The notes under the pieces were generated by a model that worked only from the letters and a program-made list of their open reading frames with translations, was not told where the DNA came from and searched no databases. A stretch of DNA of 62,052 nt, counting the filler, from Candidatus Omnitrophota bacterium (GTDB lineage: Bacteria; Omnitrophota; Gorgyraeia; Zapsychrales; JBDRMG01): the NCBI GenBank assembly GCA_043812495.1. It is 7 parts of 7 records of this genome, joined end to end, with 100 filler letters (N's around TTAATTAATTAA, not from the genome) between each part and the next. Parts side by side here need not be neighbours in the genome. Positions count along the whole stretch, not along the records: positions 1 to 13,263 come from JBDRMG010000019.1; 6 more parts are not named here. One strand, given 5' to 3'. The translations under genes were made by a program, and so were the position numbers. Shown one piece after another: positions 1 through 62,052 of this stretch. Position 1 is the first letter of the stretch. The number at the start of each line of letters is the position of its first letter.

Positions 1-2
1 CT

Positions 3-3000
3 GATGCGAAGAATACGAGCAAGCTCTATCAAATCTGTATTTAATAGATAACCTTGAGAAGTTTTGACAGCACGGTATTCGTTTTGGCTTAGAATGTCTT
101 TTATCTGTTTGATTTTTTCAAGAGGAACATCCAGAAAAAATAGGCGAGATTCGATGATATTGAGTAGAGTGGCATTGATGGCGTAGCCTGGCCTGACCGC
201 AGGCGGTGCGGTTTTTAAAGGTGCCGTGAATTCTTCATCGAAAATTTCCTCGTCCTCTCCGATTTCAATGTGACTTAAAAGTTGTTCACATTCTGTCGCC
301 ATATTCAAATAGTCGGCCGCCTTGAGGATGCTCTCGCGTATTCTTTGATAATGGCGCGGATAATGCCAGAGGGCTTTTTCCAGGAGTTCGGATAGAGTCT
401 CTTGCGTTATCCGATCATAAATCATGACAATTTGGCGGCCGCGGTTCGCCCATTCTTTTGGCAACCGCGAAGAACGCAAAGTCATATCAATGATAAAATC
501 CGCTTGGCTGCGGTCCGGATCGATCAAATAGCGGTCATGGCGGCTGTTGTATTCGGCAAAATCAACGGCATAACGCGAGAGCGCCTCCAAGCGTTCGATC
601 TCTTCTCTTTCGACGAAAATATGGATATCTCCTTTAAATCCTTCATCGGTCAAGGGACGGCCAAACCGGCCATAGGGAAGATGGACAATGAGAACATCGT
701 ATTTCGTTTTGTAATAATCAACCATCTTTTGGATATGATCAACGCGATGTTTGTTATCCAAAAACAGAGCCACGGCATAAGCGTCTGCGCTTCCTTTGCC
801 GGTGATGGCTCCCTTAATGCCGTCCTCAAAGGCTCCTTTCGGGAAAGGTTCCATATCCCAATCAAATTCACTGGGATCAAGCATGATGATTTTGATATCC
901 TTTCCTGAAAGACCTTCCGAAAGCCTCTTGGCAAAAGCAGGACCTTGGGCCCCTGGACGGCCGGTCATGCGAATAACGATTTTCGGAGTTTTCGATTGTC
1001 GCACTAAAACTTGATTGTATATTCGGTCAAAAGCCTCTTTCGGACTTAAGGCTTCCTTATCAGAAGGATAGGGATTGCGGTAAATCGGCACAACATGAAA
1101 TCCTTTTAAAGAACAAAGATCCTGCTCTAATGCATCGCCAGGGAACATCGGCCCGACATAGTAGTCCGGTTCAAGCCCATCCCTCTGCTCCGCATCGATA
1201 ATTTCATTTAAAGCATCTTTATCTTCCTGCCCTTCTCCCATGGTCAGTTTTGCCGCCAAAGCGCGATATTTGACCAATTGCTCCTCTGTTGGAATCTTGC
1301 CTTGAGCCGAAGCTTTTTGAGACAACAGATACTCATCTCTTAATTTTTCCAACGCCCCCATGATCGCTGGATTATCACGCACAGAACCCCTGCGCCTGTT
1401 GTGGAACACCATCGCCACCCCGAATCCGAGCATCATCACTACCGCCGCCAGGAGGGAGTCGGGGGATGTGAAATCAAAGCTTGGGACGCCATGGGGCAAG
1501 AATGATACACCTAAAAGCTCACCGGATTTTCCGCTGTTGGAATCTTCTCCTGTCAATTCTCCAAGAACTTCTTCGGCGAGGCGCCGAACTTCGGGGAACC
1601 TCTCTGAGAATTTCACATCACCAACGATCTCTTTTATAAGACCCAGCGTCTTTTCATCCCGCAGCCTTAACGCGCGGATGACCTCCAAAATCTCGATTTT
1701 TCCTTCACTAAAAACTTTATCCAGAATGGCGTCCAGGGCCTCCACCATAAGTTCGGTCAGTTCCTGAAATTCTTCTTTTGTAAATCGACCTTTCCATTCA
1801 AGAATAATCCTCGGCGCCAGGGGATAATCGTACCCTCCGCATCGATCTGTGATTTTGTATTTTACGCAGAGCTTAAGTTGTTCTTTAAGAAGACGAACGT
1901 GTTCCTGATGCGTAAAACGAAAATCCGGCCGCATATCAGCTTTATGAATATTAGGATTCTCAAGATTATAATCTATAAAGTACCGGATTAAGTTCTGGCT
2001 TTTTCTGTCAAATCCCATACGTTTTAATTTTCTCGCATAGACCTGCATACTCAATATAACAAACGGATCAAAAGCTCGCAGAGCCGTCAGAGAGTAAGAG
2101 GCCATCATAGACGGCATAGCCAGTTCATTCAAAGAAAATCGGCTGGGTTGGTTGTAGCTAAAGGCATACTCAAGAAAGGCCTTAATGAGTCGTTTATAGT
2201 TTTCGGGAAATCTCAGGGCCCATTTTTCTTGGCGGGGTCTTTGATAAAGATAGGGATCGCCTTGGAGTTCATTCTTCCATGGATTGATCCGCTCGATATA
2301 ATCATCGACCATTCTTTCCTCTTCTTTGTAGCTTATGCCCTCGATCGCCTCTTCCGGGTTTGTTGTTCTTCTAAACAAGCTGTCATCCATTTGAACCTCG
2401 ATATCGAAAGATACAAGCGTAAAGCGGTTTTTCCAATTATCAGGAAGCACATCGAACTTCAGATGACCTGGTTTCATCGCAAAAATAACGCCCAAATCTT
2501 CAGAGATAGCAAATTTATTTTCTTCAGAATCTTTCGCGATGTTCCATGCGGGCTTACCCATACCATTGAAGGCAAAGACTCGTTTGGTAAAGTCAGGTTC
2601 ATAAATATACATCAGCTCAAAAACCGAACCGGCGTAACGCGCATTGATCTCTCTGGCTGCCCTTCGGTCAATGAATGATTCATTGACCGGATAAACCATG
2701 GCCCATAAGAGAAATATTTTCTTATTTTCACGGCAGACCTTTTGGAAAGCGGTTCTGTCTGTATCATCGTTAATAGATCCCTCGGGATGTTTTTTAAGGA
2801 GATCATTGACGTAGCGAATTGCATCCGTTAATCCGCCATCTTTTTCGTTTTTGTCCTGAGGGAAACGATGGACCATGCCCAGCGCCATTGCGCATCCTGC
2901 CATCACCATCCCCGCCGCCAGGAGGAAGCAGGGGGAGGCGAAGTCAAAGTTAAAAATATCGGAAAAATTGCCGACCCCAAGACAGATACCGTTTTCAAAC

Positions 3001-6000
3001 CTTGCCTTGCTTGAGGCATCAGAGCTCGGATTTGTATCTTCTGCTATTTGAATGACGCAGGCCATTAAATTCTGTCCGGGATCGACTTCGGCGTAGCTAA
3101 CCGAAAACTCATAAATAGCCGGCTGAAAAGAAGCGGCATACAGATATTCATTTCTCACAAGGCCTAGATTGATAAGGAATTCATCGAAAGCGGCATCGAC
3201 AAAGGTCAAATACTCGATAACCCGGATACAGTTACTGGCGATAAAGCCTGCGACTCTGCCATCCCTTTGACCTTCCTCGTCTGTTAACAGTTGATCGAAG
3301 TGATGCGCGCGACAAGCGGCGTGTTGTATTTTTAAACGAAGATCATCATCGGCGATGTCCCCTGGATCAATAAGCGCCATCTTGACAATGCCAATCGTGT
3401 GAGACCCGTCTCCCGCTAAGTAGTATTCTCCTTCGGGTAACCGGCTTCCCGTGACTTCATCTAAAAGACTTTGCATGTCTTTTGAAAGATTCAAAAATGG
3501 AGCAAAAAGAATTGTTTTCCCTTCCCGGGTGAAGAATGTATTTCCGCTAGCTTCAAAAACAAGCCGAATTTCCCGCCCCTCTGATTTTTGAAAAACATTG
3601 CCGCCCTTTTCGCCAGCTCTTTTTCTTTTGAATATGCTCCAGATGCCAACGCCCATTATTATCAGCACCGCCGCCAAAAGGATTTCGAGGGAGGTGAGGA
3701 GAAAATCAAGAGGAATGACAATATCAAGTCTTTTGCCATCATTTTTACTTCTTGACGAAGCGTCATTTTTCAAAGCAGCCTGCGCAACCCTAGTGATTTC
3801 CTGTTTATCCACCTCAACATAGCTGGCTTCATAAAGAAAGCGCAACTGTTTCATGAGCCCACCAATGTCAGTCTGGCACAGACGATGAAGCGAAGTAAAA
3901 ACAGGACCCATCCATTTTTCTTCTGTCTCGTCAAAATGAAACATCATGTCATGAAATCGAAGGGGATCGAAGAAAACAAAATGTCCACAATCAGAAAATA
4001 CTTTAAAGAGCTCAAGTGACCCTCGGACAATGTCCCTTCTTGCTTGAATCGCGACCGAAGACTCGCGATGGGAAACATGAAGAAGATCATGGTAATCCCT
4101 AAAACCGCCGAGCCATTGTTCGCTGTAGAATTCAAAATTAGCAACCTTCGCAAAAGCGCCAAACCTTGGAATAAGCGAAGTCTTTGAGCTGACGGTCTGA
4201 AGGAAATCGACATAACCTTCCTTAAATTGTCCCCGGGCAGCCTTAAGGGCCATTTCGTATATCGACTGATCAGCAAGCTCAATACGCGCATAATAAACCT
4301 GGGTAAATGCATCCTCGGAAACAAAACTATAGCCGACTTTAATCTTTCCTTTTAGATTGCAATCTTTCTTGCCAAACAGACGCGCGAGTGATTTAAGCAG
4401 AAATCTTCTTTGTCTGAATAATTGTTGAATATCACAAGCGTCTGGCCCAGCACTTTGGCTATACACAAGAGGATCTTGCAGATTAGTTTTCATTCTGGTT
4501 ACTTCTATTTCTAGCGGATCCCCTTGTTCATCTTTAAAATTCTTCATGATCCCCACAATCCCAATCCCCATCATCACCAACACCACCGCCAGCATGGATT
4601 CGGGAGAGGTGAAGGAGAAATCAAAGCCTAAAGGCAGAACAATTTTGTAATCTTGTTTGTCCTCGTCTTCTTCCGGATAATCGCGCATAGAATCAAAGCG
4701 GACCCTGCCTCTTTCGCCCTCTTTATGCGTCAAGAGGATTTCACTCATCATGGCATAAGCGGGAATCAAAACACCCCTTTTTCTTAGTTCACCAACAGTT
4801 GTTTGGATGATAACGACATCGTCCCGAGAGGGGTTGCTGTGGAAAACACGGGCTGCCCTTTTTGCATCTATAAAGCCGCTTTCACCCACTCCCCAGTTTG
4901 ATTGATTAACGCTCATGGTCCCGGGAAGTCCGGCATACGGCCGCATAACACTGCGGTAAACACGAACATCGTCAGGAATCAACTGGAGATCGAGCATGTC
5001 AATGATGCGAACGATTTCTTCTGATTTCTGGATGGCGCCGCGGGAAGGGATTTTTGATGTGCCGGAGGAATGATCAATGGAAATGGGAACATTGCTCTTT
5101 AACTTGACTCTTACGGCTTGATCGCCTCCAGCGTCTATGAGAAAATCGACAATCGCCTGTAAATTATCATATTCGATATCATCGGACCTTAGAACTTCCA
5201 GGATCAAAGAGCGTATAGCGCCTAAGCTGATATATTGCCCGGCGGCCCTTAGGCGCACCTCTTCTCTCAATTTGAGAATTCGTTCTCGCTCAAACAAAAG
5301 GGGCCTGATCCCCCGACCGATGCCTATCTTTTCAGCCCATAAAACAAATTGTTTAATATAAAATTCCCGCGCCTTTTGAGAATCGAACTCAACAAACAGC
5401 AAATTTTCCAAAACGCCTCTAAGACGTAATAAATCCAATCCCCATGCCTCCGATTCATCCTCTTTATTATGCGCAATAGCCATCGCCACCCCAAAGCCCA
5501 CCATCACTAAAAGCGCCCCCAGCATGGATTCGGGGGAGGTGAGGGTGAAGTCAAAACCAATAAAACCTCTAAATTCTCTAACTGAATTTTTTCTATCTAA
5601 ATCTTTCTGCGCTATAACACCCCAAGCTAAAAGATTATTCTGAGAATCGTTAACATGAATAGTGACGATGTCTTCCAGTAATCCAAACCCATGTTTCTTC
5701 AAGAATGACCTTATCTCTTGTTCATCTTGAAATACCCGCCTTTGCAAAAATTCAAATAATTCCTTAGCTTCTTGCACATTTTCTATCTTCTGCTCGGTCT
5801 TGCTTATTAACCGTTCACCCTCACTGATTCTTTCAGGCAAAGGACGTAAGACATAAGCATTTTCGCCTAATTCAGGTTTGTGGACATAGCATAACTCAAG
5901 AGCGGCCTTCCCCAAAAGCATAAGTTCGTGTTTCGCTACATCATAATTGATTCTATTTATGCTATATGATATTAAACCAAATTCATTAATGCTGATCTCA

Positions 6001-9000
6001 GGAATCTCTTGTCCAATGGCCATCTTTAAATAATTCAGAATAAACTCTAAAATTGTCAATTGCAGGGGAGCATCTTCTGCTGTTCCGCTTAATAAAAATG
6101 AATCAGGATGATGTAGGATTAATATAACCTTTCCGTTTGGCTTAAGAATTCTGCTTGCCTCTTGAAAGGCATCATTTTTCTTCATATACGATAAAGAGAA
6201 TGAAAAAATAACGCCATCAGAAAATTCATCACCAAAAGGCATTTGCTCAGCTTTTGCAACTCGATGTCGAGGATCACCTTTTTTATCAAAATAGGCATCA
6301 ACTGAATAGGTTGTCATTTGGGAATTTTTTCCCTCAATGTCTTTGGAAAGCTTGCTATCTGCCGAGCCAATATCAACGAGGACTGCTTTGGGTTTTGTTA
6401 TATGGGTGCTTACGGCGCTGAGTATAAAACTTCTAGCATGTTTGAAGGGTTCGGCATCAATGCCAAAAGAAATATTCGTGTTATGGTCCGATTTCTCTCC
6501 GTTTCTGGAATGTACCATCGCCCAAACCCCAATCCCAAGCATAAAGAGAATTGCCCCCACCATCGATTCCATGGAGGCGACGCCAAAATCAAAGAGAATC
6601 ATGTGATTTCGTAAATGCTCCCCTGGCTCATCAGAAGAGAGGATGGGATAATCTCTAAAATCACTGCCGGCGACGTGTAAATGTCCTCCGGGTTTGGCAA
6701 CTGATCTTATTTCTTTAAATAATCTCGCTTTTATTGTTTCGTCGTGCATCTGCCCTATGACACGGTTAATGACCAATAGATCGACTTCCTTAAGGAGCGC
6801 TGAAAATGCCGAGGACGGCATCTCGCATGCGATGAGCCGAATATTTCTGTTAAACTCATCGGGACGTGCATTGAATTCATCCATGACATCGAGCCGTAAT
6901 TTTACAATAATACCATTCCTGGCCTTGTTATCACTCAGAGCCGTCAAAATGTCATATCCCTTTTTAAGTCTTTGTTCGGCTCCGCGAATGACTGTTTCGT
7001 TTTTATCCATTCCTATAAATTCAAGCTCAAATTCCTCAAAATCCGATATGGATCGTTTCAGGCCGCGCCTAACCAACGTCTTCCAGCTGATGATTTCTTG
7101 TCCGAACCCGCACCCAGCTATCAGAATATTTATTTTTCGATTACTCGTTTTTCTTTTTTCATTCAGGATGCATCGGATAATATTATCGAAATCGACGACG
7201 TTATATTGCTCTCGTAAAAAATAGCTTTCCGCTTGCGTTTCTCCGACCAGCGCAAGATGCTTTAAGAAAACATCGAACATACCCAAAAGGAGTCGATCCG
7301 TGCCCTTGGCTAACATATTCAAAACCCGATCATAGTTCCCTTGATATTTCCGACAGAAGAGGTCTGTGTAACTAAAATATTTTAGAAATTGTCCCGTTAT
7401 CCTTTTGTCTATGCCCCGCTCTTCGAATTGGCGGCCAAGCGTACCTCTCATCGCTATATATATTTCTGATTCATACTTTTCTGCAAAATCCTCATACCCC
7501 AGTAAATTCGGATATAGGCTTTCATCCCTTCCCCTTTTTGTCCATTCTTCCCTAAAGGATTGAAGTGGGTCATCGGATTTTTTTACCCTCACCATCATTG
7601 CCACTCCAACCCCAAGTATCATCAACACCGCCGCCAGCAGGAATTCGGGGGAGGGGAGGGTGAGATTAAAGGGAACTGCGGGCAAGAGGAGATTGACAGC
7701 GCTCGGAGCGTATGATATGCTCTTTTTAGATATATTCCCGGAATCTAACAAATTTGACAGAAATCTTAGAGGCCAAGACGTTATGAAAGTCAATAATCTT
7801 TTAGATAGAATCGTCGCCAATCCCGATATCCAGCACGGCAAACCATGCGTCAAGGGCACGCGCACCCCTGTATATGTTGTATTGGAGGCATTGTCCTTAG
7901 GATTAACGCCGGATAAAATCAAGGAAGAATACCCTCCCCTGACAGATGAAGATATCCAAGCCTGCCTTTCTTTCGCAGCGCTCCTTGCCAACGAAGAAGA
8001 ATCCCCTTTACGGCTTAAGACATGAGACTTCTTTTGGATGCCGATGTTCCCCGTTCTTTTGGCCATAGGCTTAAGTCCGAGGGCCACGAAGTTGCCGATG
8101 TCCGAGATATATCCAAAATTCCTCTGAAAGACGAAGCAATTTATAAGCTCGCTATTGATGAGCGAAGAACCTTGATTACCCGTGATTTGGATTTCAGCAA
8201 CATTCTTCTGTATCCACCAAAACCTACCTTTGGCATAATCGTCCTTAGGACCTACCAATTGTCGACCGATGGAATGTTCGAGGTGCTTCGACAATCGCTC
8301 CAAAAGACAACAGAGGATAAGCTCCGAGGAACGCTTGTTATCGTCCAAATAGACCGTCTGCGTTTTTATCGTTAACACCGGCACGCTCATCATCCATATC
8401 ATTAAAATTCCAACTCCCGCCGCCATCCCCGCCGCGAGGAAGAAGTCGGGGGAGGTGAGGGCAAAGTCAAAAGGAATCATAAGGCTGCTTATTGAAGTCG
8501 AACCGGAACCACCCGAAGAGATTACAATATGCTTACGCGTATACTCTAAGACAACCCTCATGACATCTTGAGCATATCGTTCAGTACATCTTCCTTCGAT
8601 TGGCTCTGCAAGAAGAACATCTATTCTTTGCATCAAAGGTTCTATTTTTTGCGGTGAAAGCCTGTGAACTGCTCTGATAAGGCATATCTTGTTATTCTCT
8701 TCTAATTGATCGGGATCAATCTCACAAACAGGAGAAATTTGATAAAGCAATTGAAAGACACGTTCTGTATTTAATTCAACAGTGACTCTTGCGATATCAT
8801 CAAAGGAAATAATCGGTTCATCACTATGCAATGATATAAAACTATTGAAGAGCTTAGTAATCCATTCTTCACCATGCTTAAGTCCAAACGTAATAGGTAC
8901 CTCATTGAATAATCGGCCAGCATACGCAGGGTCTTTCTGGATAAGCTCAATGAATATCGGTTTTACCCTATTTGTGTAGAGCTCCACAGGCGCATGGGCA

Positions 9001-12000
9001 TCATAATAACAACTACAAATTTCTAAAAGGGCGGCATGGACTAATTTGATCCAAAATAGACTGCCGTCTTTTGGTTTTGAGCCATCAGAGAAATGGACAA
9101 GCTCTACCAAGGATGTATTGTTGATGATTTCCCGGCTTACCATTTGTATGATTTCATCAGGGCCATCATCAATGGTGACAAATACGATGGAAGATGCGAT
9201 GAGAAGATCTCTGTGTTCCTGCCAATCCAGATCCAATTCTTCAAAGAACTCCATGGCCGCAAAAAGTCCTCGGCGTTCGCCATCCCAGCCTCTTCTAAGG
9301 TAAAAAATGTGAACATCTTCCAGCCCACATTCTCCCGCTTTTTGGTTTAATCCTCTGTACATACCTTCATGAAGCCCCTTAGGTATCCTCCAATCAAACT
9401 GCAAGGATATTAAATGCTCAAGATAATCTCTTTTTATTTCTATGGGAAGACCAGAGGATCTGGCTGCTTTGACATATTCAATGAGTTCTTCATGATGGGC
9501 TTTAAAGTATTCTTCGCTTGCTTTAAAGGCTGCTTGGCGGGCTTGTTCTTGAGTAAGGCCTTGTGTTAATGCTTTTAATCTTTCCGCTCCCTGACAATCA
9601 AAGATATCTGAAAGGACAACGGCAGGAATGTTGTCCTCAAGAAGCCTCCAGCTAATCGTAAAGACAATGACATCAGGTTTCTTTCTTACCTCTATAGTGA
9701 ACACTTCTTGTCTTGCTTCAGGGATAAGTACCACCTCTATGGACTGATCAGAGGGAGCATGTACGAGGACTCCCTTAAGCAACTCTTCTATTCTGCCTGG
9801 TAAGAGTTCCCTTTCGTGGTGATCAAGATCAGCTATCCCCCCTGGGCCTTTGGTTATTCGAATAATCTCAAAAGAAGCGTTCCCTATTTCTCTTCTTAAC
9901 GTAACAGCAGGCTTTGGTGTTTTCTTAAAAACCAAACCAGGATAATCAAAAGTACACACTATCCCTAAAATCCCAACCCCAACCAAAAGCCCTATGATCA
10001 GCCAGCCGGAAAGGTCACCTGATAAAATGAATATATGATTTATGGGGTCTCCTTCGCCTGGTTCAGTCTTGCTTTCATTATCCTTTGCCTCAGAAGATTC
10101 TTCTTTAAATGTGAAATCAGCGGCCAGGGCTTCTTTCAGGGTGGGAAGTTTTAGAATCGGCGCATGTCCGCTAAAATAAGAATCCACCAAAGCCTTGGCC
10201 CAACGCGCCTCTAGATACCCCTGATCAATAATGACCCTATCAGTCTCCACCTGCTCAGTATTATTTGGCGATACGACTTTTATGCGGCCGGTTTGTCGAT
10301 CAATTTTGACCACACCGCCATCTGAGGAAAACCCGCTAATTTCATCCGCGGAGAATATCATCTTGTACTCAAATGAGAATCTTCCTACACATTTGGTTAA
10401 CAGCAAAATTGTGACGAACATTTGAAGAATCAAGTAATCGCGCATGGCTTCATTTTGGAACCTGGTTAATTCTGTACCGTCCGCGGCCAGAAGACGAATA
10501 TCTTCTTTTGCCAAGCGATAACCCCATGGACCAAGATAGATCGCAATCTTATGCTTTACGGCAAACACCTCTACATCTTTAAAACCGATGCGTCTTGACA
10601 CTCCTTCATATTGTTTGGAATCAAAACAGGTCGTCATGTCCCTGATGCCCGTTTCTTCTGGTTGAATCGCCATGGGTTCAGGTAAATCGAAAAGAAACTG
10701 GTTAAACTCACTTACGGGAAAGCTTGGATGCCGTACTGTCCATCTCAAACTGGTTTGGTCTTCTGCGCGCTTAACCGTAATCTCAGACAAAGAACCCTGC
10801 CATTGGTCGTGAATAATCTTCATTTGAGCCAAGAAAATGTCAAATTCCGTGTGGAAATCCTTAAGCCGCCCTTCGGCTTTTAGTTGTTCGCCGTACCATC
10901 CGAAGAACTTTTCTCTTATGTCTTCGAAAATGGCATAAGCCGTATCCTTGAGCGTGCCAAACAGGATATCAAGCATAACGACCAAGGCCGGTGTGTCGCC
11001 TTGATTTGCGAATAAATTTGCAAACTCTTTTGTTTCTCTAGACTTCTCTTGTTTAACAGCCTGAAATGTTTCTCTCGCTGAAACCATATTCCCTCTTAAG
11101 CGGAATGTTTTCTCAAGTCTTAGATCATCGAAAAATTCAGCTAATTCTTCATAATCTCGCGGCTCTAAATCAAAAGGAAAAATCAAAAAGCGCCAGAAAG
11201 TCAAATCATCATCATACGCTTGCTGATTTCCTTTTAGAACTTCGAGCAGGCCTTCGTCTGTCTTTTCCATGAATTTACTTGCGAAATATAGCATGTCTCG
11301 GTAAACGGAACTTATGGAAAAGATTGTCTCGTCCCAAGCCTGCGTCGAAAGGGAAGCGAAAGCATCTTCCGGTAAGCGCAAAAGAGCCACCTCCGGGACA
11401 AGAACAAGAGCCTTTAACCCTGTTAGGAAGGCCATCCATTGTTCTTTCATCATGTCTTCTTTTCCTCTTTGAGGGAATAAAACCTCGTATAACTGAGCGG
11501 CTTTGCTTCCCGGTTCTTCTTTGGCTTTCTTTTCCAAATTTGAGCGCAAGGTTAAATAATTGTTCTCTTCTGTACCAATGAGATCGGATTGAGCATAAGA
11601 CCCACCGAAAGTCTCCTGAAAGACATCGAAAAGAATCTCTGGAACAATGTAGGCTCGCTGACTAACCTTTTTTATGATACCGTCGAATGTTTCACGAGTT
11701 CTGGCCAACATTTGAGCCTTGCGCGCTTGGGCTTCTTCTATTTCTTTCTTGAGTGTTTCCAGGCATTCGTTTGCCTTTCTTAATTTTTCTTCCGGAGTGG
11801 TAGATTCGTTTATCTCGTTAAAGTAAGTCAAAAGACTTGTATGGGTCGCTTCCTCTTTCTGATCTCTCTCTCCTCCCAGATCCTCCCGAGTCCTCCAAAG
11901 AGAATCTAAACGAATTAAAATTCCGGTAATCTGGCCGAAACGTTTGACATCTGCGTCTAATCTATTCTCTGTTCGTTCAAAATCATCATATCGTTCAACG

Positions 12001-13262
12001 GAAACGATAGACTCGATGTCGGCGCGGAACCTTTTGGCCAATGAGCCGGGGATGCTTTGATTCAGCTGAGGTAAATCAATGTCTCTGTATTTGTTTTCAT
12101 GTTCGCTGAGTTGCAAAGAAAGCACATTGCGCGCCTTAATCCTCTTGTCTTTGATTCTGTTGAATATGGATCGGACAGAATCACGAATACTTTTCAGGCC
12201 TGCAAAGGCATACGAAAAAGCCTCTGCGTCGTGTCCGTCGCTTGAGTAGAAATGGTCTAACGGGCTATTCCGGGCCTGCCACGCCTTCCTTCGATCGGTA
12301 ATGGTACTTAATTCATCGTCTAAAATGACGCCCCATTCTTTGGCCTGGTCAATCATGGCCTGAATATTTTCCTCCATATGGTGTAACCGTTTCTCGTTTT
12401 TCTTCGCGTCTTTGGTCAGGGGCCTATCGTTAGGGAATTTTCGTTCGCAGGGCAAATAAGGATCTTGAGCTTTTTCATCCTGAAAGGTCTTCTGTCTGTG
12501 GTGCTTTTCTGTAATACGGCGGACTTCACTTACCAGCGCTTCTTCGGATAAAACCTCTCCAAAGAGTTGCCTGACCCTCTCGATGACCTCATCTGTAATC
12601 CACGCGGTCATGGACGAAAGCCCTTCGGGTCCTCGGAAATCACTCCAAAAAGTTGTTATTAGTTTTCGGCTTTCCTCTTCGGCGCGTTCACGGACGATTT
12701 TGATCTGCCGGCCGATCCAATATTGGTCGGCATCCACTTCTTCTTGTTCCTCTGAGGTCTCAACTTCTTCTTCAGGCTTGACGTGACTTTGGATGGCCAT
12801 TTCTAAGGTAAGACCCTTTTTAAGTTTAATACGTTCAATTTCCCTAAATCGCTCTGGAGATAGAATGGTCGGATCGGCAGCCTCTTTGCCTTGGAATTGA
12901 GAGAAGAAAGCTTTGGCTTGCGTGATATCTGCATTATACGCAAGCCCCCCCTTATCTTGATGCGAATCGATCGTCGCCAAATAAATCGTGTTATGATAAA
13001 GATTGATGACATAAAAAATAGATTGCTTGGGAATACGGATGTGACCGACGTTGGGAACATCGATATTCTTAAACCGCCCGATGACTTTATTTGCCACATC
13101 CTGCGTGTACGCCATATAATGGATAATCCAAATCTTTGCGGCAACAACAGGCTTTAATACCGCCGGCAAAGTATCCCAATCCTGCATGAATCGTTTGGAG
13201 GGGATAATGTCAAAGGATTGCTGCTGATTGGCCCGTACCATGGCGAGGACCGCCAGCGCCAA
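3..13262 (-). CDS. Giant modular multi-domain protein, partial at both ends (>=4420 aa), with hydrophobic repeats separating unrelated domains
   Basis: Manual reading of + strand triplets starting at positions divisible by 3 from 3 to 13260 found no TTA/CTA/TCA, so this minus frame has no stop. It runs off the window edge and into the contig end, which probably explains its absence from the ORF track. The translation contains recognisable motifs (methyltransferase, CheR-like, kinase-like). Confidence 0.93.
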   Translation of the reverse strand, partial: MALAVLAMVRANQQQSFDIIPSKRFMQDWDTLPAVLKPVVAAKIWIIHYMAYTQDVANKVIGRFKNIDVPNVGHIRIPKQSIFYVINLYHNTIYLATIDSHQDKGGLAYNADITQAKAFFSQFQGKEAADPTILSPERFREIERIKLKKGLTLEMAIQSHVKPEEEVETSEEQEEVDADQYWIGRQIKIVRERAEEESRKLITTFWSDFRGPEGLSSMTAWITDEVIERVRQLFGEVLSEEALVSEVRRITEKHHRQKTFQDEKAQDPYLPCERKFPNDRPLTKDAKKNEKRLHHMEENIQAMIDQAKEWGVILDDELSTITDRRKAWQARNSPLDHFYSSDGHDAEAFSYAFAGLKSIRDSVRSIFNRIKDKRIKARNVLSLQLSEHENKYRDIDLPQLNQSIPGSLAKRFRADIESIVSVERYDDFERTENRLDADVKRFGQITGILIRLDSLWRTREDLGGERDQKEEATHTSLLTYFNEINESTTPEEKLRKANECLETLKKEIEEAQARKAQMLARTRETFDGIIKKVSQRAYIVPEILFDVFQETFGGSYAQSDLIGTEENNYLTLRSNLEKKAKEEPGSKAAQLYEVLFPQRGKEDMMKEQWMAFLTGLKALVLVPEVALLRLPEDAFASLSTQAWDETIFSISSVYRDMLYFASKFMEKTDEGLLEVLKGNQQAYDDDLTFWRFLIFPFDLEPRDYEELAEFFDDLRLEKTFRLRGNMVSARETFQAVKQEKSRETKEFANLFANQGDTPALVVMLDILFGTLKDTAYAIFEDIREKFFGWYGEQLKAEGRLKDFHTEFDIFLAQMKIIHDQWQGSLSEITVKRAEDQTSLRWTVRHPSFPVSEFNQFLFDLPEPMAIQPEETGIRDMTTCFDSKQYEGVSRRIGFKDVEVFAVKHKIAIYLGPWGYRLAKEDIRLLAADGTELTRFQNEAMRDYLILQMFVTILLLTKCVGRFSFEYKMIFSADEISGFSSDGGVVKIDRQTGRIKVVSPNNTEQVETDRVIIDQGYLEARWAKALVDSYFSGHAPILKLPTLKEALAADFTFKEESSEAKDNESKTEPGEGDPINHIFILSGDLSGWLIIGLLVGVGILGIVCTFDYPGLVFKKTPKPAVTLRREIGNASFEIIRITKGPGGIADLDHHERELLPGRIEELLKGVLVHAPSDQSIEVVLIPEARQEVFTIEVRKKPDVIVFTISWRLLEDNIPAVVLSDIFDCQGAERLKALTQGLTQEQARQAAFKASEEYFKAHHEELIEYVKAARSSGLPIEIKRDYLEHLISLQFDWRIPKGLHEGMYRGLNQKAGECGLEDVHIFYLRRGWDGERRGLFAAMEFFEELDLDWQEHRDLLIASSIVFVTIDDGPDEIIQMVSREIINNTSLVELVHFSDGSKPKDGSLFWIKLVHAALLEICSCYYDAHAPVELYTNRVKPIFIELIQKDPAYAGRLFNEVPITFGLKHGEEWITKLFNSFISLHSDEPIISFDDIARVTVELNTERVFQLLYQISPVCEIDPDQLEENNKICLIRAVHRLSPQKIEPLMQRIDVLLAEPIEGRCTERYAQDVMRVVLEYTRKHIVISSGGSGSTSISSLMIPFDFALTSPDFFLAAGMAAGVGILMIWMMSVPVLTIKTQTVYLDDNKRSSELILCCLLERLSKHLEHSIGRQLVGPKDDYAKGRFWWIQKNVAEIQITGNQGSSLINSELINCFVFQRNFGYISDIGNFVALGLKPMAKRTGNIGIQKKSHVLSRKGDSSSLARSAAKERQAWISSSVRGGYSSLILSGVNPKDNASNTTYTGVRVPLTHGLPCWISGLATILSKRLLTFITSWPLRFLSNLLDSGNISKKSISYAPSAVNLLLPAVPFNLTLPSPEFLLAAVLMILGVGVAMMVRVKKSDDPLQSFREEWTKRGRDESLYPNLLGYEDFAEKYESEIYIAMRGTLGRQFEERGIDKRITGQFLKYFSYTDLFCRKYQGNYDRVLNMLAKGTDRLLLGMFDVFLKHLALVGETQAESYFLREQYNVVDFDNIIRCILNEKRKTSNRKINILIAGCGFGQEIISWKTLVRRGLKRSISDFEEFELEFIGMDKNETVIRGAEQRLKKGYDILTALSDNKARNGIIVKLRLDVMDEFNARPDEFNRNIRLIACEMPSSAFSALLKEVDLLVINRVIGQMHDETIKARLFKEIRSVAKPGGHLHVAGSDFRDYPILSSDEPGEHLRNHMILFDFGVASMESMVGAILFMLGIGVWAMVHSRNGEKSDHNTNISFGIDAEPFKHARSFILSAVSTHITKPKAVLVDIGSADSKLSKDIEGKNSQMTTYSVDAYFDKKGDPRHRVAKAEQMPFGDEFSDGVIFSFSLSYMKKNDAFQEASRILKPNGKVILILHHPDSFLLSGTAEDAPLQLTILEFILNYLKMAIGQEIPEISINEFGLISYSINRINYDVAKHELMLLGKAALELCYVHKPELGENAYVLRPLPERISEGERLISKTEQKIENVQEAKELFEFLQRRVFQDEQEIRSFLKKHGFGLLEDIVTIHVNDSQNNLLAWGVIAQKDLDRKNSVREFRGFIGFDFTLTSPESMLGALLVMVGFGVAMAIAHNKEDESEAWGLDLLRLRGVLENLLFVEFDSQKAREFYIKQFVLWAEKIGIGRGIRPLLFERERILKLREEVRLRAAGQYISLGAIRSLILEVLRSDDIEYDNLQAIVDFLIDAGGDQAVRVKLKSNVPISIDHSSGTSKIPSRGAIQKSEEIVRIIDMLDLQLIPDDVRVYRSVMRPYAGLPGTMSVNQSNWGVGESGFIDAKRAARVFHSNPSRDDVVIIQTTVGELRKRGVLIPAYAMMSEILLTHKEGERGRVRFDSMRDYPEEDEDKQDYKIVLPLGFDFSFTSPESMLAVVLVMMGIGIVGIMKNFKDEQGDPLEIEVTRMKTNLQDPLVYSQSAGPDACDIQQLFRQRRFLLKSLARLFGKKDCNLKGKIKVGYSFVSEDAFTQVYYARIELADQSIYEMALKAARGQFKEGYVDFLQTVSSKTSLIPRFGAFAKVANFEFYSEQWLGGFRDYHDLLHVSHRESSVAIQARRDIVRGSLELFKVFSDCGHFVFFDPLRFHDMMFHFDETEEKWMGPVFTSLHRLCQTDIGGLMKQLRFLYEASYVEVDKQEITRVAQAALKNDASSRSKNDGKRLDIVIPLDFLLTSLEILLAAVLIIMGVGIWSIFKRKRAGEKGGNVFQKSEGREIRLVFEASGNTFFTREGKTILFAPFLNLSKDMQSLLDEVTGSRLPEGEYYLAGDGSHTIGIVKMALIDPGDIADDDLRLKIQHAACRAHHFDQLLTDEEGQRDGRVAGFIASNCIRVIEYLTFVDAAFDEFLINLGLVRNEYLYAASFQPAIYEFSVSYAEVDPGQNLMACVIQIAEDTNPSSDASSKARFENGICLGVGNFSDIFNFDFASPCFLLAAGMVMAGCAMALGMVHRFPQDKNEKDGGLTDAIRYVNDLLKKHPEGSINDDTDRTAFQKVCRENKKIFLLWAMVYPVNESFIDRRAAREINARYAGSVFELMYIYEPDFTKRVFAFNGMGKPAWNIAKDSEENKFAISEDLGVIFAMKPGHLKFDVLPDNWKNRFTLVSFDIEVQMDDSLFRRTTNPEEAIEGISYKEEERMVDDYIERINPWKNELQGDPYLYQRPRQEKWALRFPENYKRLIKAFLEYAFSYNQPSRFSLNELAMPSMMASYSLTALRAFDPFVILSMQVYARKLKRMGFDRKSQNLIRYFIDYNLENPNIHKADMRPDFRFTHQEHVRLLKEQLKLCVKYKITDRCGGYDYPLAPRIILEWKGRFTKEEFQELTELMVEALDAILDKVFSEGKIEILEVIRALRLRDEKTLGLIKEIVGDVKFSERFPEVRRLAEEVLGELTGEDSNSGKSGELLGVSFLPHGVPSFDFTSPDSLLAAVVMMLGFGVAMVFHNRRRGSVRDNPAIMGALEKLRDEYLLSQKASAQGKIPTEEQLVKYRALAAKLTMGEGQEDKDALNEIIDAEQRDGLEPDYYVGPMFPGDALEQDLCSLKGFHVVPIYRNPYPSDKEALSPKEAFDRIYNQVLVRQSKTPKIVIRMTGRPGAQGPAFAKRLSEGLSGKDIKIIMLDPSEFDWDMEPFPKGAFEDGIKGAITGKGSADAYAVALFLDNKHRVDHIQKMVDYYKTKYDVLIVHLPYGRFGRPLTDEGFKGDIHIFVEREEIERLEALSRYAVDFAEYNSRHDRYLIDPDRSQADFIIDMTLRSSRLPKEWANRGRQIVMIYDRITQETLSELLEKALWHYPRHYQRIRESILKAADYLNMATECEQLLSHIEIGEDEEIFDEEFTAPLKTAPPAVRPGYAINATLLNIIESRLFFLDVPLEKIKQIKDILSQNEYRAVKTSQGYLLNTDLIELARILRI
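1410..1478 (-). repeat. Linker repeat R1: FDFTSPDSLLAAVVMMLGFGVAM
   Basis: Translated in the giant frame; followed by VFHNRRRG. Confidence 0.9.
2874..2948 (-). repeat. Linker repeat R2: FDFASPCFLLAAGMVMAGCAMALGM
   Basis: Same frame; DNA core ccgccgccaggaggaagcagggggaggcgaagtcaaag closely matches R1. Confidence 0.9.
3639..3710 (-). repeat. Linker repeat R3: LDFLLTSLEILLAAVLIIMGVGIW
   Basis: Same frame; followed by SIFKRKR. Confidence 0.85.
4545..4625 (-). repeat. Linker repeat R4: FDFSFTSPESMLAVVLVMMGIGIVGIM
   Basis: Same frame; DNA core cagcatggattcgggagaggtga nearly identical to R5. Confidence 0.9.
5481..5555 (-). repeat. Linker repeat R5: FDFTLTSPESMLGALLVMVGFGVAM
   Basis: Same frame. 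Confidence 0.9.
6516..6593 (-). repeat. Linker repeat R6: FDFGVASMESMVGAILFMLGIGVWAM
   Basis: Same frame, more diverged. Confidence 0.85.
7593..7670 (-). repeat. Linker repeat R7: FNLTLPSPEFLLAAVLMILGVGVAMM
   Basis: Same frame; followed by VRVKK. Confidence 0.9.
7693..7721 (+). promoter_or_regulatory. Sigma70-type promoter for the TA operon with a palindromic spacer (possible operator)
   Basis: TTGACA (7693-7698), 17-nt spacer, TATGCT (7716-7721) preceded by TGn; spacer contains CGCTC-G-GAGCG. Confidence 0.75.
7783..8025 (+). CDS. DUF433-family antitoxin (80 aa)
   Basis: RIVANPDIQHGKPCVKGTRTPVYVVLEALSLG...EEYPPLTDEDIQACLSFAA is the DUF433 pattern. ATG 7783 follows AGAGG and the promoter, so the track's upstream GTG start is unlikely. 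Confidence 0.92.
   Translation: MKVNNLLDRIVANPDIQHGKPCVKGTRTPVYVVLEALSLGLTPDKIKEEYPPLTDEDIQACLSFAALLANEEESPLRLKT
8022..8375 (+). CDS. DUF5615 / VapC45-like PIN-domain toxin
   Basis: MRLLLDADVP...GHEVADV...DEAIYKLA...RTLITRDLDF...GIIVLR; ATGA overlap with the DUF433 gene. Confidence 0.9.
   Translation: MRLLLDADVPRSFGHRLKSEGHEVADVRDISKIPLKDEAIYKLAIDERRTLITRDLDFSNILLYPPKPTFGIIVLRTYQLSTDGMFEVLRQSLQKTTEDKLRGTLVIVQIDRLRFYR
8388..8471 (-). repeat. Linker repeat R8: FDFALTSPDFFLAAGMAAGVGILMIWMM
   Basis: Same frame; ends 12 nt from the toxin stop codon. Confidence 0.9.
9954..10041 (-). repeat. Divergent hydrophobic linker R9: HIFILSGDLSGWLIIGLLVGVGILGIVC
   Basis: Same frame; GVGI hydrophobic helix after a polar linker, no FDF..SP motif. 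Confidence 0.6.
13239..13262 (-). repeat. Probable truncated linker at contig end (LALAVLAM)
   Basis: Hydrophobic run ending in AM like the other copies; the contig breaks here. Confidence 0.55.
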
Positions 13263-13263
13263 A

Positions 13264-57702: not shown

Positions 57703-60700
57703 AAAAAATTCCTGTTCAATAAGAATTGCGCAATTCGCCCAGGCGGGGATGAGCTGGACATATTGATCGCGCACCACATCAAGCGCTGAACCATCCAAAT
57801 AATCAATGGCGCGGATATTGATGGCTTTGGCTTTATTTCGCAAGGCTTTAACGAAATCCAAGGCCTCTTTTCGTGTTTCATAAAAGATGAGGCCGTTGAG
57901 CGATGATGTTGGCGCTTCAATAAGCTTGAGCTCGACTTCTGTCACGACACCAAGCGTGCCTTCGGCGCCGATGAATAAATCAATCAAGTCCATGCTGGGT
58001 TCGAGAAAATAACCGGCAGAATTGTCTTCGACGTTCGGCCGTTTAATTTCGGAAATTTGAAGTTCAATACGCTCGCCATTGGACAGTTCAATCAAAAATT
58101 CGCCTTTGGCGCTGGCAAATGTTTCTCCGCGTTTGATGTCTAGGATTTCGCCATTGGCCAAAACAACTTTTAGGCGCGTGACCCATTTGCGCGTGGAGCC
58201 GTATTTGAATCCGCGCGTGCCAAAGGCATCGGTATTGATATTGCCGCCCAAGGTCGCGGTCCGTTCGGTCGGATTCGGCGGATAGAATAATCCTTCTGAT
58301 TCGGCGGCCTTATGGATATCTCCCAAACGCGCGCCGGCCATCACGACCATACGGTATTCATCGCCTTCTTTCCTGATATCAATAATCTCATTCATCTTTT
58401 CCATGCTAATGACCCATCCGCCGAATGGCACAGCCGCGGCCACTAACCCCGTGCCCCCGCCCCTTATGGAGGCGGGAATTCCTAATCTATTGGCTTCCTT
58501 AAGAATTGCGGCGACTTCTTCGGGGGTTCTAGGTAAGAAAGCGCGCGCGGCATGGCCTCCTTGGGTGCGTGATTCATCTTTGAGATAATCTTCAAGCTCC
58601 TCGGGAGCGTCTTTGCTGGAAACATCATGAATCGCCCAATGTTCTTTCTCTGCTTCGGCCCGGGCGCGGGGGTTATTCTCTTTCCTCGAACCGCCCGCGA
58701 ACACCGCCAGAAGACCAAAACCGAGAAGACCTACCAGAAGGACTATCGGATTTAACGGATCCGCCAAAAGATAAATGCCGAGGGGAGCGTCATTCTCGTC
58801 TTCTGGCTTTATTCTCCTTGAGCTTTGACATCCGATTTGTGTTATATCTTTAAAAGAACATGTTGTTCTAGAATAAACAAATACTCTTTTTATCCATTTT
58901 CTTGGAATATCGCAGGCGATGTCGATTTCAATTCCTTGATCATAAGTCACGGCCTCAGAAGGTATTTCGGCACGTTCCGCTTCAATAAGAACGCAGTAGA
59001 AATCCGTTCTTACGGGAATGAAGTCTATCGATTTCATAAACGACCCGGATGCAGCAACAGCATGACCCGGCTCATAAGCAAAATGATGCGTGGCACATTC
59101 TGTATCTTTTAACTTCAAGCCTCTTTTTATAATTTTCTCAATAGAAATTTTTCTTAAACGCATAGCTCGATATATAAATTTATTAAGCTTTAAGTCCCTC
59201 CCAATATTTTCGTTGATTTGCGTTATGGCTTTTACGGCTAAGGTCCAATCCAATTGATCAGTATTGTCAAATTTACTTTCGCGCAATATAGACTCGATAT
59301 TACTCTTTTCATTGCTTCCTTTCTTCTTCGCCCCGACCCGGGCGCGGGGGTTATTCTTTTTCCGCGAACCGCCCGCGAACACCGCCAGAAGACTGAAACC
59401 GAGAAGACCGGCAAGGGTGAAGAGTAAACTCGGAAGGTCGGCCGGCGAGATGCCGAAAAGCGTATTACCTGATTCCGAGGTCATGGAAGGCCCTTGGTCT
59501 TTATCTTGAAAACTTCTAATAGCGGCCATTCGTTCTTGTGCCAATTGGATGGCCTGATCATAACTTCTGACTTCATCGCGGTTCCGGAACGTCGCTTCAC
59601 GGCGTTTCTCGTACAATTCATCGATGGCTGACTGCAAAATATCCAGCGACGGCCGGCCTTCGAGAGGGTCATTGCCGAATGTAAGCGGAAGATCGCCTTT
59701 CAAAAATCTTTCCGCCTGCGGCCGGTAAGGCTTGCCGTCTGGTGATTCGGCAAATTGACGGATCCATTCCTCGGCCATTTGTTCTCCCTTCTTCGGGTCT
59801 TTCCCTAAATCTTCGGCCAAATAACGAAGACCCCGGATCAATCCGTGAAAGGCCACGCTTGGATTAGAGATACAGACAGGGACTTGCGCGCAGCGGGGTT
59901 TGACAAATGCGGCGGGTCGTGTCATCATTCCGTCGGGGATAATGGGCTCTATGGTATAAAGCCGAACGAGGGATTGGATAAAGGCGGGGATATCAACGCC
60001 TGATTTTGTCCGTCTTATGGTGGTTATCCGGATGCGAGGCGGGTCCCGGGAATTCCTTTTGAGCACAAAATCTCCGCTGTTGACAAAAACACCGGCCATC
60101 GTTGTTCCGCCGTCTTTATCAGGCTCATAATGATAAACAATAGCAGCCGCCATTTCGGCCAAGACAGGGGGGATATCCTCTTTGGGCAGAGGAATGAACC
60201 GGCTGACCCCGGACTCGCGGTCCGATTCCCAGCGGCGAAGCACTCCCTGGGCGAAGTTCAACTCCTCATGCCCGCGGAGAAATTCGCTGACAACAATGGG
60301 AAAACTCATCCATTGATCGCCTTTTGTAATCCCGAGCCCGAACGTCCGCTCACCATGTGGTTCCGGAATAAACCGTCTTCTGCCCGATTCCCAATACCTC
60401 TTAAAACAACGCGCGTCATGAGCGACCGCCGCAACATGGCTTTTTTCGATGCTCAGCGGAAATGATAACGCAAAATCTTCACCTCCCAAAAGAAGCTTAT
60501 AAATGATGGCAAACCGCCCGAACTTAAGTGGTTGCAGTTCGGCCTGGGAGTCCGTTTTTCTGAAAATCTCAAGGAGCCACTTCTCTAAACGTTTTACTTC
60601 ATGCAGGCTTAGCCTGTCTTGAGAAGAGATCGGCGGATAATCAAAAGAAACAATGACATTATCATGAGTCCATCTGTATTCATCATCCGTGACTTTGATG

Positions 60701-62052
60701 CCGCCAATTAAAAATAGCATACTACTAAACAGGGTCGCTGGGCCAATCTGACCGCTGATGGCTGACAGCTGATGGCTCAACAGGCCCAGCGGCCCGAGGA
60801 TGATGACAATCAAACCAAAAGACGCAGCAAAAATAGGGACGTTCTTCAGCCACCGATAAAGGGTGTCCCCTTTAACATATGCTTGGGGACACCCATAGGT
60901 TCCAGCTGAAGAACGTCCCTGATTAATATACGACATTACCTGCCTCGCCTTACGGCGGGCAAGGCGGACGACATTACTACCTACTACATTACGACCTGGC
61001 CCCCGCTCTTTCTTTTGACTATGTGATTTCTTGATGATCAAAAGCACCACGGCCCCAATCATCAACAAGCCAATCAAAACAACCAAGTATTCATAGCCGG
61101 TAGTCGCTTGAATTGTTTGCCAAATACTGGACATATTAAAAGGCGCGAATGGTCCAATAGTGCAGTCGAAATCTTCAAATGGATCTTCATCTAATCCAAC
61201 CTCAGTCATATCTCTAGGGCGTCTAACGAATCGATGTCTCTTTATTTTTTCTATGGCCTCTCTTGCCAATGAATCATTCTCAGCTCCTTTGACATTCATT
61301 GCCTTATCTTTAGTCGCAATACCATGTAATATTGTATTTGATAAGGCATCCGCCACAGTTTCTAGCTTACTCAATCTGACAGTTTGACCACCGTCGGTTG
61401 ACCATAAACACCAACCCAGAGGAATCAGCCGATGATTTACCCCATTAAAGTATTCTCTATTTTTATACACCTCTATTGAGAAGACTGAAATTCTAGATTT
61501 CCTTAGTAAATCATCCACCTTTTCATAAGGAACCGGACTAATCCCGCTCAACTGCCAGATCTGCCTGAGACTTTTTGCTGCCGCTTTCATCTTATTCCAA
61601 CTGGCTCCTTTCTCTGACCTTGCTTTACTTAGAAGATCTCTGATCTGATCTAAAACTCTTAATATTCCTTTCGCACCAAATGAACCTCCCTGCAGCAAGA
61701 CTGCAGGGTATCTTTTTTTAGAAGAATCTTGAGGTTCATTCTTCGAAGCCGAATACCTAACTCTACTACGCTCAAAAATTTCACTTCGTTTCATGTTTGA
61801 GCTTCGTAGAGTTCTACTTGCGCCTTTCCGCCCAAAATCTTTGATTTTGGGCGAGATCTCGCCCTGCTTTGCAGGGCGGACATCCCCGTGGCAAGCCACG
61901 GGGTATTCGGCGAAGTAGAATAATACATCCAAAACCTCATGACTAATCACACCTTTAGCAACAGAGAGATTGTAACTTATTGTATGGATATCTACACCTA
62001 TCCTTCCAGCCGCTTCTTCTCTGTATCCATATATTTTCAAACGACCTTCCCC
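57703..62052 (-). CDS. Second giant modular protein fragment (>=1450 aa, open at both ends) with hydrophobic linkers, an ART-like domain and an FAD-linked oxidase domain
   Basis: The 1461-aa track ORF is also open upstream of its TTG to the window edge, and its stop comes from the spacer. FAD_binding_4 motifs RGGGTGL, TLGGNINT, IGAEGTLGVVT. Confidence 0.9.
58659..58731 (-). repeat. 73-bp direct repeat copy 1 (GLLGFGLLAVFAGGSRKENNPRAR)
   Basis: 69/73 nt identical to 59337-59409. Confidence 0.95.
59337..59409 (-). repeat. 73-bp direct repeat copy 2 (GLLGFSLLAVFAGGSRKKNNPRAR)
   Basis: 69/73 nt identical to 58659-58731; offset 678 nt = 226 codons. Confidence 0.95.

Follow-up and report, generated by a model that had tools for sequence, protein, structure and literature searches.

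A giant reading frame of an Omnitrophota bacterium, divided by membrane-helix linkers and holding a predicted antisense toxin-antitoxin operon

The DNA analysed here (the window, 62,052 nucleotides) joins seven contigs of the Candidatus Omnitrophota bacterium assembly GCA_043812495.1; its N runs are spacers between contigs. Our subject is contig C19 (window 1-13263), whose minus strand is occupied from end to end by a single stop-free open reading frame (ORF) of 4420 codons, as a sequence-only reading of the same DNA had noticed. The chance of such a stop-free frame is very small (log10 about -87). The frame runs on into neighbouring contigs, and the TTG taken as its start is simply the contig edge. 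A short repeat, hereafter the linker, separates ten units of the frame, one of which (unit 3) is made up of an operon on the opposite strand. The features are listed in the order in which the giant frame is read.

3..13262, minus: giant multi-module ORF, internal fragment of 4420 codons, open at both contig ends (ORF scan, contig overlaps, codon score)
57703..62052, minus: contig C32, upstream piece of the same frame (via contig C52), with twin linkers, a unit duplicated on contig C44 and a flavin adenine dinucleotide (FAD) oxidase domain
13239..13262, minus: linker end cut by the contig edge, completed on C52 (translation, overlap)
10038..13238, minus: unit 1 (1067 aa), beginning with a RelE/ParE-like domain (about 12900-13238; lead only), followed by helical regions
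9948..10031, minus: divergent linker helix (hydropathy, alignment)
8487..9935, minus: unit 2 (483 aa), without family match (Pfam, PADLOC, NCBIfam)
8388..8471, minus: linker (FDF..S-P-D/E, hydrophobic helix, basic residues; profile search, as for the linkers below)
7683..8387, minus: unit 3 (235 aa in the giant frame), stop-free antisense shadow of the nested operon
7693..7721, plus: sigma-70-type promoter TTGACA-17-TATGCT with TG extension, upstream of the operon (consensus match only; 3 sites against 1.8 expected)
7783..8025, plus: DUF433 (COG2442) antitoxin gene, 80 aa (Pfam E 1.4e-21; PDB 2ga1 E 0.008; start inferred from relatives)
8022..8375, plus: DUF5615 PIN-like toxin gene, 117 aa, ATGA overlap with the antitoxin gene (Pfam E 5.3e-25)
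7587..7670, minus: linker
6603..7589, minus: unit 4, CheR-like S-adenosylmethionine (SAM) methyltransferase (Pfam)
6510..6593, minus: linker
5565..6512, minus: unit 5, class I SAM methyltransferase (Methyltransf_11, PF08241; Pfam), lowest GC (0.37)
5472..5555, minus: linker
4635..5474, minus: unit 6, helical N-terminal part and C-terminal ADP-ribosyltransferase-like fold (structure model)
4542..4625, minus: linker
3720..4541, minus: unit 7 (274 aa), orphan, kinase-like by eye only
3627..3710, minus: linker
2961..3629, minus: unit 8 (223 aa), orphan
2871..2954, minus: linker
1491..2870, minus: unit 9 (460 aa), orphan
1395..1478, minus: linker
3..1406, minus: unit 10 (at least 468 aa, continuing on contig C35), orphan, with a P-loop-like stretch and a kinase-like look by eye only

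The genome to which C19 belongs (1.94 Mb, 66 contigs) is 90% complete. Exact 141-nt overlaps of contig ends give the order C32-C52-C19-C35, with C52 and C32 upstream and C35 downstream, and the translations agree over all three overlaps. One frame of ~9,300 codons is thereby assembled over four overlapping contigs, with both ends open; the giants to which it can be compared have at least 10,000 aa. The same genome carries many further giant frames, the longest of 25,094 codons, and frames of at least 1400 aa take up 16% of it. On C19 the giant frame has the best codon score in nine of the ten units, the exception being unit 3.

The linker is composed of a short aromatic stretch, S-P-E/D, about 20 hydrophobic residues forming a helix, and then basic residues. 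Eight clear copies, a divergent one and a truncated one had been described at the outset; this description is borne out, a hidden Markov model (HMM) made from six copies giving 8 matches in C19, and the positions first given are the 3' ends of the copies. The HMM has no match in any other ORF of at least 60 aa of the genome. Of 167 other genomes, 6 give weak single matches to the repeat (E 5e-4 to 9e-3), each of them in a short frame. As supposed, the repeat corresponds to no named family: nine copies gave no Pfam hit over cut-off, and Rfam no match. It is a protein-level membrane helix local to the C19 contig. Linker sequence drifts along the same gene and differs among giants.

Nine linker helices and the cut one are counted in the 4420 aa, a density of transmembrane helices as in the published giants; these helix calls rest on hydropathy only. 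Among the isolated helices of C19 the balance of lysine and arginine (K/R) is higher after the helix than before it in 7 out of 8, with one tie and no reversed case. Across all long ORFs of the genome the ratio after:before is 60:31 (p 0.003), compared to 30:36 in ordinary genes. At the DNA level, 140 of 223 same-residue codon pairs are identical among linkers, against 61 +/- 7 expected. This conservation of synonymous sites suggests that the linker DNA may be younger than its protein divergence implies, and it would fit recent duplication or conversion.

The units measure 223-483 aa, plus one of 1067 aa, close to the sizes announced from the sequence (about 225-490 and about 1070), and they do appear mutually unrelated: by BLASTP at E<=1e-3 no unit matches another within the ORF. 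The announced shifts of composition stand for positions 5570-6300, which are AT-rich (GC 0.36, the eight clear linkers being at 0.48-0.62); the units range over 0.37-0.46 and ordinary genes lie at 0.45 +/- 0.03, which leaves unit 5 as the one clear outlier. The ORF had also been called unannotated. This is true of units 2 and 7-10, which are orphans, and fails at two places, where Pfam recognises Methyltransf_11 and CheR-type domains. PADLOC and NCBIfam add nothing on C19 beyond methyltransferase families and weak matches. Neighbouring contigs of the same frame contribute FAD oxidase, TPR and HhH domains, so that the frame, with its SAM methyltransferases and TPR, displays the diversity of enzyme domains found in giants.

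Two units have effector-like leads. For the RelE/ParE-like start of unit 1, Atlas gives 0.93 with 19 of 30 matches in the ParE/RelE set, while Pfam and PDB are silent; the helical regions that follow have homologues solely in long ORFs of relatives. The model of unit 6 (predicted local distance difference test, pLDDT, 81) has its best structural match at Z 7.6 (82 residues aligned at a root-mean-square deviation of 2.2), and ADP-ribosyltransferase (ART)-fold proteins make up most of the 12 best-ranked matches; Foldseek gave no match at E<=0.001 and there was no PDB sequence match. A single-sequence model of units 6-7 (pLDDT 34) is unusable. One 287-aa homologue of unit 6 (P0006) starts with a putative signal peptide by eye, hinting that this cargo may be exported. 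Of the supposed multi-effector payload, some of the cargo does look effector-like (the RelE-like lead and the ART-like fold); two other units are SAM methyltransferases and five are orphans.

Two observations concern the cargo in other respects. The unit between the twin linkers of C32 (window about 58800-59300) contains ADP-ribosyltransferase-like motifs by eye, Pfam being silent. Within the low-GC unit 5, positions 5640-5937 are the only piece that was found in another public run (298 nt without difference), too short a match to interpret.

That unrelated modules are fused in frame and are gained, lost or exchanged at the repeats, as the sequence-only reading proposed, is supported by five lines, one of them the likeness of linker DNA given above and four of them comparisons. 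A unit of C32 (window 59468-60914) has a copy on C44, with 87% identity over 1447 nt up to the start of the linker and different units beyond it. Also on C32, two linkers that flank a single unit (58656-58731 and 59334-59409) are 93% identical over 76 nt. Paralogues of unit 4 are present on C35 and C20, and all three copies sit between linker helices, each with other neighbours. Finally, relatives share single units, never neighbouring pairs. In 168 genomes of the same order every match is confined to one unit, in frames of 690-15,934 aa; units 1-2 are matched in 5 other genomes and units 6-9 in 3, the matches being confined to unit 1 or unit 6. Among 1.84 billion representatives there are 11 non-self matches, all centred on unit 6 and none reaching unit 7. 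In those inspected (7 of the 11 proteins, and the loci of relatives), other short recurring motifs are seen by eye near the shared domain. By comparison, then, modules appear to be gained, lost or swapped with breakpoints at the linkers.

Close orthologues of the C19 ORF are absent among 5708 and 4674 candidates. Colinear orthologues, which had been named beforehand as the finding that would contradict exchange, were not seen, the databases holding no close orthologue to compare. A DNA search of 41 genomes matched unit 3 alone, in three relatives, one of the matches being just 34 nt, and units 9-10 have a match in none of 167 other genomes.

The operon that makes up unit 3 had been overlooked in the sequence-only reading. 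On the plus strand unit 3 contains a promoter, a DUF433 gene and a DUF5615 PIN-like gene coupled to it, and the operon fills the space between two linkers. We conclude that unit 3 is an intact predicted DUF433/DUF5615 toxin-antitoxin operon on the strand opposite to the giant frame. Antisense stops are missing over both genes: none over the toxin gene where 4.5 are expected (P 0.003), and none over the antitoxin gene where 1.6 are expected (P 0.09).

To place this operon among its relatives, DUF5615 loci were taken from the same-order search with the window toxin (8 loci) and from the best 30 found in 74 positive of 401 genomes; four duplicates were merged before the scan, which covered 34 loci, and one more duplicate (L054) was dropped after it, leaving 33. 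In 14 of the 33 the operon is nested, i.e. the antisense frame is open over the whole fetched locus (845-1117 codons); ten of these are codon-aligned and four shifted. For the best 30 loci of the 401-genome sample the count is 12, the window's own included. On the tree the codon-aligned label needs 5 changes, at least 4 of them forced by well-supported branches. In another Omnitrophota assembly (L015) a near relative of the unit 3 operon is nested too. The backwards toxin-antitoxin cassette, as predicted from these sequences, is recurrent in giants across Omnitrophota.

Five close nested relatives (clade support 97/97) are 64% identical in the toxin frame and 34% in the giant frame, with 59% of third positions differing. 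Selection would therefore keep the sequence of the toxin, but only the openness of the giant frame. Between genomes these five operons have no homologous flanking unit, and different linker types stand beside them. Many nested operons stand between two nearly identical stretches of the giant that hosts them, often between the lineage's own repeats; the repeats that flank related operons share no sequence or structure common to different lineages. Our reading is that operons may often arrive with a duplicated target, and that the frame-compatible ones can live inside giants.

Some loci of this set are worth describing for themselves. In L055 and L061 an antisense DUF433/DUF5615 operon lies inside an intein-like region (by eye) of a long ORF whose frame is open, at the position where a homing endonuclease would be. 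The non-nested operons L011 and L012 lie between two copies of the 3' end of a gene on the opposite strand (197 nt at 94% and 218 nt at 85%), with an antisense frame open for 237 and 296 codons, which looks like a target-duplicating insertion. L051 has more PIN-like ORFs upstream of its DUF433 gene, on the same antisense strand and within the same open giant frame. Genomes G106 and G370 have 5 and 7 DUF5615 matches respectively, three of them within 18 kb on contig C1 of G106; several nested operons may be present in one giant.

The array had been likened to an integron with cassettes fused in frame. Its cassette behaviour and its promoter-bearing toxin-antitoxin unit agree with this view, as do the unrelated gene-sized cassettes of variable content between repeats that are also the mark of sedentary chromosomal integrons, where toxin-antitoxin units have their own promoter. 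In large integrons these units reportedly hold back the loss of cassettes on a large scale (PMC8876359). The integron machinery is what the comparison lacks. No match over cut-off to the IntI model TIGR02249 is found in the 90%-complete genome, which has just two tyrosine recombinases (291 and 301 aa). With attC cores and hairpin defined as in PMC5027507, the cores RYYYAAC / GTTRRRY occur in none of the eight repeats within -60 to +90 nt of the S-P codons, and folding at the repeats is not above that of shuffles (z from -0.6 to +1.9 as DNA and from -2.5 to +1.1 as RNA, for a background standard deviation of 1.1). A consensus stem is weak and its covariation term unfavourable. Unlike integron cassettes, which have their own stop codons, the units of C19 are fused in one frame without stop, and the repeat is translated. 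We therefore rejected identity with an integron.

Our preferred reading, to which we give a probability of roughly 0.55, is that C19 carries a fragment of an Omnitrophota multi-enzyme giant gene that behaves like an array of in-frame cassettes without an integrase and most likely encodes the precursor of a polyprotein. Self-contained modules lie between copies of a short linker encoding one membrane helix. They would turn over at the linkers by ordinary recombination, or by insertion with duplication of linker DNA, and this would keep neighbouring linkers alike. Since the giant frame is stop-free even across DNA that codes for something else, translation must run through. The chain would then be cut at or beside each linker, leaving units anchored by a single helix. 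Under the positive-inside rule, which is well established, the helices of one chain that passes through the membrane at every repeat have to alternate in direction, yet they share the same charge orientation; this fits the cutting of a precursor better. The cargo, i.e. the RelE-like domain, the ART fold and the SAM methyltransferases, would need a cytoplasm to act in, and the cytoplasm of a host or prey cell is the most plausible one. RelE-like and ART-like domains without a partner gene alongside would indeed act more plausibly in such a cell, and predation by Omnitrophota is described in published work (West-Roberts et al. 2023, Nielsen and Lui 2026 and Seymour et al. 2023). The antisense toxin-antitoxin operon would be a selfish passenger that survives because the opposite strand has no stop; once it is in place, deletion between linkers would be costly and the array would be stabilised, by likeness to large integrons.

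We propose a wider form of this reading as a tentative one. Giants would be integrase-free cassette arrays in which lineage-specific linkers admit, release or swap modules in a frame that stays open and frame-compatible toxin-antitoxin operons move from giant to giant as backwards, stabilising cassettes, and the same linker would be the cut signal for membrane-anchored effectors delivered into prey.

Several results weigh against these proposals. As regards exchange, C44 may be a paralogue or the DNA of another strain. No free-standing donor of unit 5 was found: it has a match in none of 400 other genomes, and no protein of similar length matches it at E<=1e-10. Two published giants of 122 and 99 thousand aa align nearly full length at 58.6% (10.64898/2026.06.07.730766); this pair is colinear, and therefore shuffling is not universal. 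As regards the nested operons, direct repeats on the flanks exceed 30 shuffles at 9 of 14 nested loci and also at 8 of 18 non-nested ones, and an antisense frame without stops occurs in 5 of 19 non-nested toxin genes as well, three of the five branching beside nested ones. Cutting meets other difficulties. Several giants (C65 7:6, C11 3:4, one C20 ORF 2:5) do not show the charge bias, and a linker that varies within the gene as well as from lineage to lineage sits uneasily with a single protease. A rhomboid was not found in the 90%-complete genome, the sole C39 domain stands at the start of another giant ORF, and C80 was not matched in a genome search whose control also failed to match. We infer the cleavage of the giant product, to whose gene no protease is tied. 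Lastly, the C-terminal domain of unit 6 is an ADP-ribosyltransferase-like fold by prediction, with a middling Z of 7.6.

The main competitor is one intact polytopic membrane protein, with ordinary stop-transfer and signal-anchor helices, units on alternate faces and nothing cut; shuffling would be seen at linkers as the only tolerant places. It is the published interpretation, with about one helix per 370 residues in membrane-anchored architectures (10.64898/2026.06.07.730766), and it accounts for the paired helices of some neighbouring pieces and for the fact that no protease or fixed cut motif was found. But all scorable helices of C19 point the same way, and the two SAM-dependent units 4 and 5 lie one helix apart, so that single crossings would put one of these enzymes outside the cytoplasm. 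Moreover the 235-residue antisense shadow would need to be threaded as a domain. We consider this explanation as a serious though unlikely one. Much less credit goes to separate translation of the units from one mRNA, by an internal ribosome-binding site and ATG at each linker end, the open frame serving only to keep ribosomes on. Seven of the eight clear copies do have an in-frame Met near the helix end, where Shine-Dalgarno-like pairing reaches -5.5 to -7.5 kcal/mol, the average over all internal Met codons being -2.1. This pairing is however what Gly-Val-Ala codons yield in any case, and just one Met codon out of 11 exceeds synonymous resampling (p 0.027). A Met is missing from one copy, and without stops internal starts would yield nested long products instead of units. 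Because the pairing is explained by these codons, we mostly rejected this possibility and regard it as very improbable.

The repeat DNA could alternatively be the recombination site of an unrecognised recombinase that inserts cassettes in frame. Homology does break at a linker, the synonymous sites of the repeat are conserved far beyond codon usage, and a C-rich arm before the S-P codons faces a G-rich arm after them, with the weak consensus stem mentioned above. The lack of IntI and attC cores (the two tyrosine recombinases set aside), the non-significant folding z-scores and the unfavourable covariation term speak against such a system, as do repeats that differ between lineages at related operons and a linker that drifts within the gene. 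We hold it for improbable. As to an assembly artefact, with a contig chimeric at the repeats, one of the three contig junctions falls at a linker end, and the coverage of the contig by the one DNA run compared is limited to 298 nt that include no joint. But the two most similar repeats of the contig share 81% identity over 69 nt, well short of the 141-nt overlaps seen in the assembly, the frame is open across every repeat, and the same layout exists in independent genomes. This last explanation is the least probable of all.

The sequence-only reading had pointed to giant genes reported in this phylum, and the C19 ORF does belong, as a fragment, to a class of giant genes already published; it is no stand-alone novelty. 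Archaeovorin-type giants of Omnitrophota were described by West-Roberts et al. 2023 (10.1101/2023.11.21.568195), and a "multi-enzyme metabolic cluster" class by Nielsen and Lui 2026 (10.64898/2026.06.07.730766). Like them, C19 has a very long ORF, unrelated enzyme domains including PF08241, regular helices and mostly orphan sequence. Archaeovorin-like giants have SecA_DEAD and an N-terminal C39 or S8 peptidase in one ORF; in this genome, where the assembled part of the C19 gene lacks both ends, SecA_DEAD is seen elsewhere, in frames of 997 and 476 aa, and C39 at the start of another giant. The published giants have a helix every few hundred residues, and their cleavage into smaller proteins and the gain of domains are left as open questions in these papers (10.1101/2023.11.21.568195; 10.64898/2026.06.07.730766). 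The papers, in their main texts, treat helices as ordinary anchors. C19 differs in that its helix recurs at the boundaries between modules, in a single orientation, and in that an operon running backwards makes up one of the modules. A term search of both main texts found no antisense genes, integrons or motif-level delimiters, on which the supplements may bear; likewise, literature searches found no report of delimiter motifs or nested antisense genes in Omnitrophota giants, which supplements could list. What the locus adds is a helix-type delimiter with one orientation, a linker breakpoint within a single genome bin and a toxin-antitoxin cassette that recurs in backwards orientation.

For the exchange and cutting of modules, the best functional analogy, and not a family match, would be with MARTX toxins. 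These are single giant chains of effector domains whose content is changed by recombination and which process themselves into pieces (PMC5555677). Unlike in MARTX, the linkers are membrane helices and the organism is no animal pathogen; no MARTX repeat or C80 family was matched in the 4420-codon fragment. The nested operon resembles the PIN-COG2442 type of VapBC, of which Synechocystis vapBC10 is an example: in both a DUF433 gene precedes a PIN-like gene in a coupled two-gene operon with a promoter upstream, and the Synechocystis pair was shown to be a working toxin-antitoxin system (PMC3834315). Unlike vapBC10, the operon of the window, known here from its sequence, lies entirely antisense to a giant frame that looks translated, and it avoids codons that would end that frame.

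The locus offers exact places, i.e. ten defined linkers and the breakpoints, at which the questions left open on giants can be addressed. The 235-codon stretch, whose amino acids are not conserved while its frame stays open, constitutes an internal control: it should be translated if the giant is real. It also follows from the nested operons that real toxin-antitoxin genes are lost by gene callers in these genomes, the loci concerned being 12 of the best 30 for DUF5615 in the phylum sample. The operons offer, moreover, comparative evidence for bacterial DNA coding on both strands. Together, the nested operon and the linkers suggest how giant genes grow and avoid collapse.

Three minor observations relate to the wider assembly. 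A dispersed repeat of about 245 nt with short palindromes (window 61679-61923, i.e. C32:3977-4221) is present on 10 contigs; giant ORFs on C32, C20 and C63 read through it in frame, and the assembly breaks there. At C20:33579-33670 and C63:17005-17168 consecutive giant frames form pairs with a short overlap and a change of frame, which may be two genes, a frameshift or an assembly slip. Contig C39 (3423-9953) has a 2177-aa ORF that looks Rhs-like by eye; directly after its end comes the dispersed repeat that leads into giant-gene contigs.

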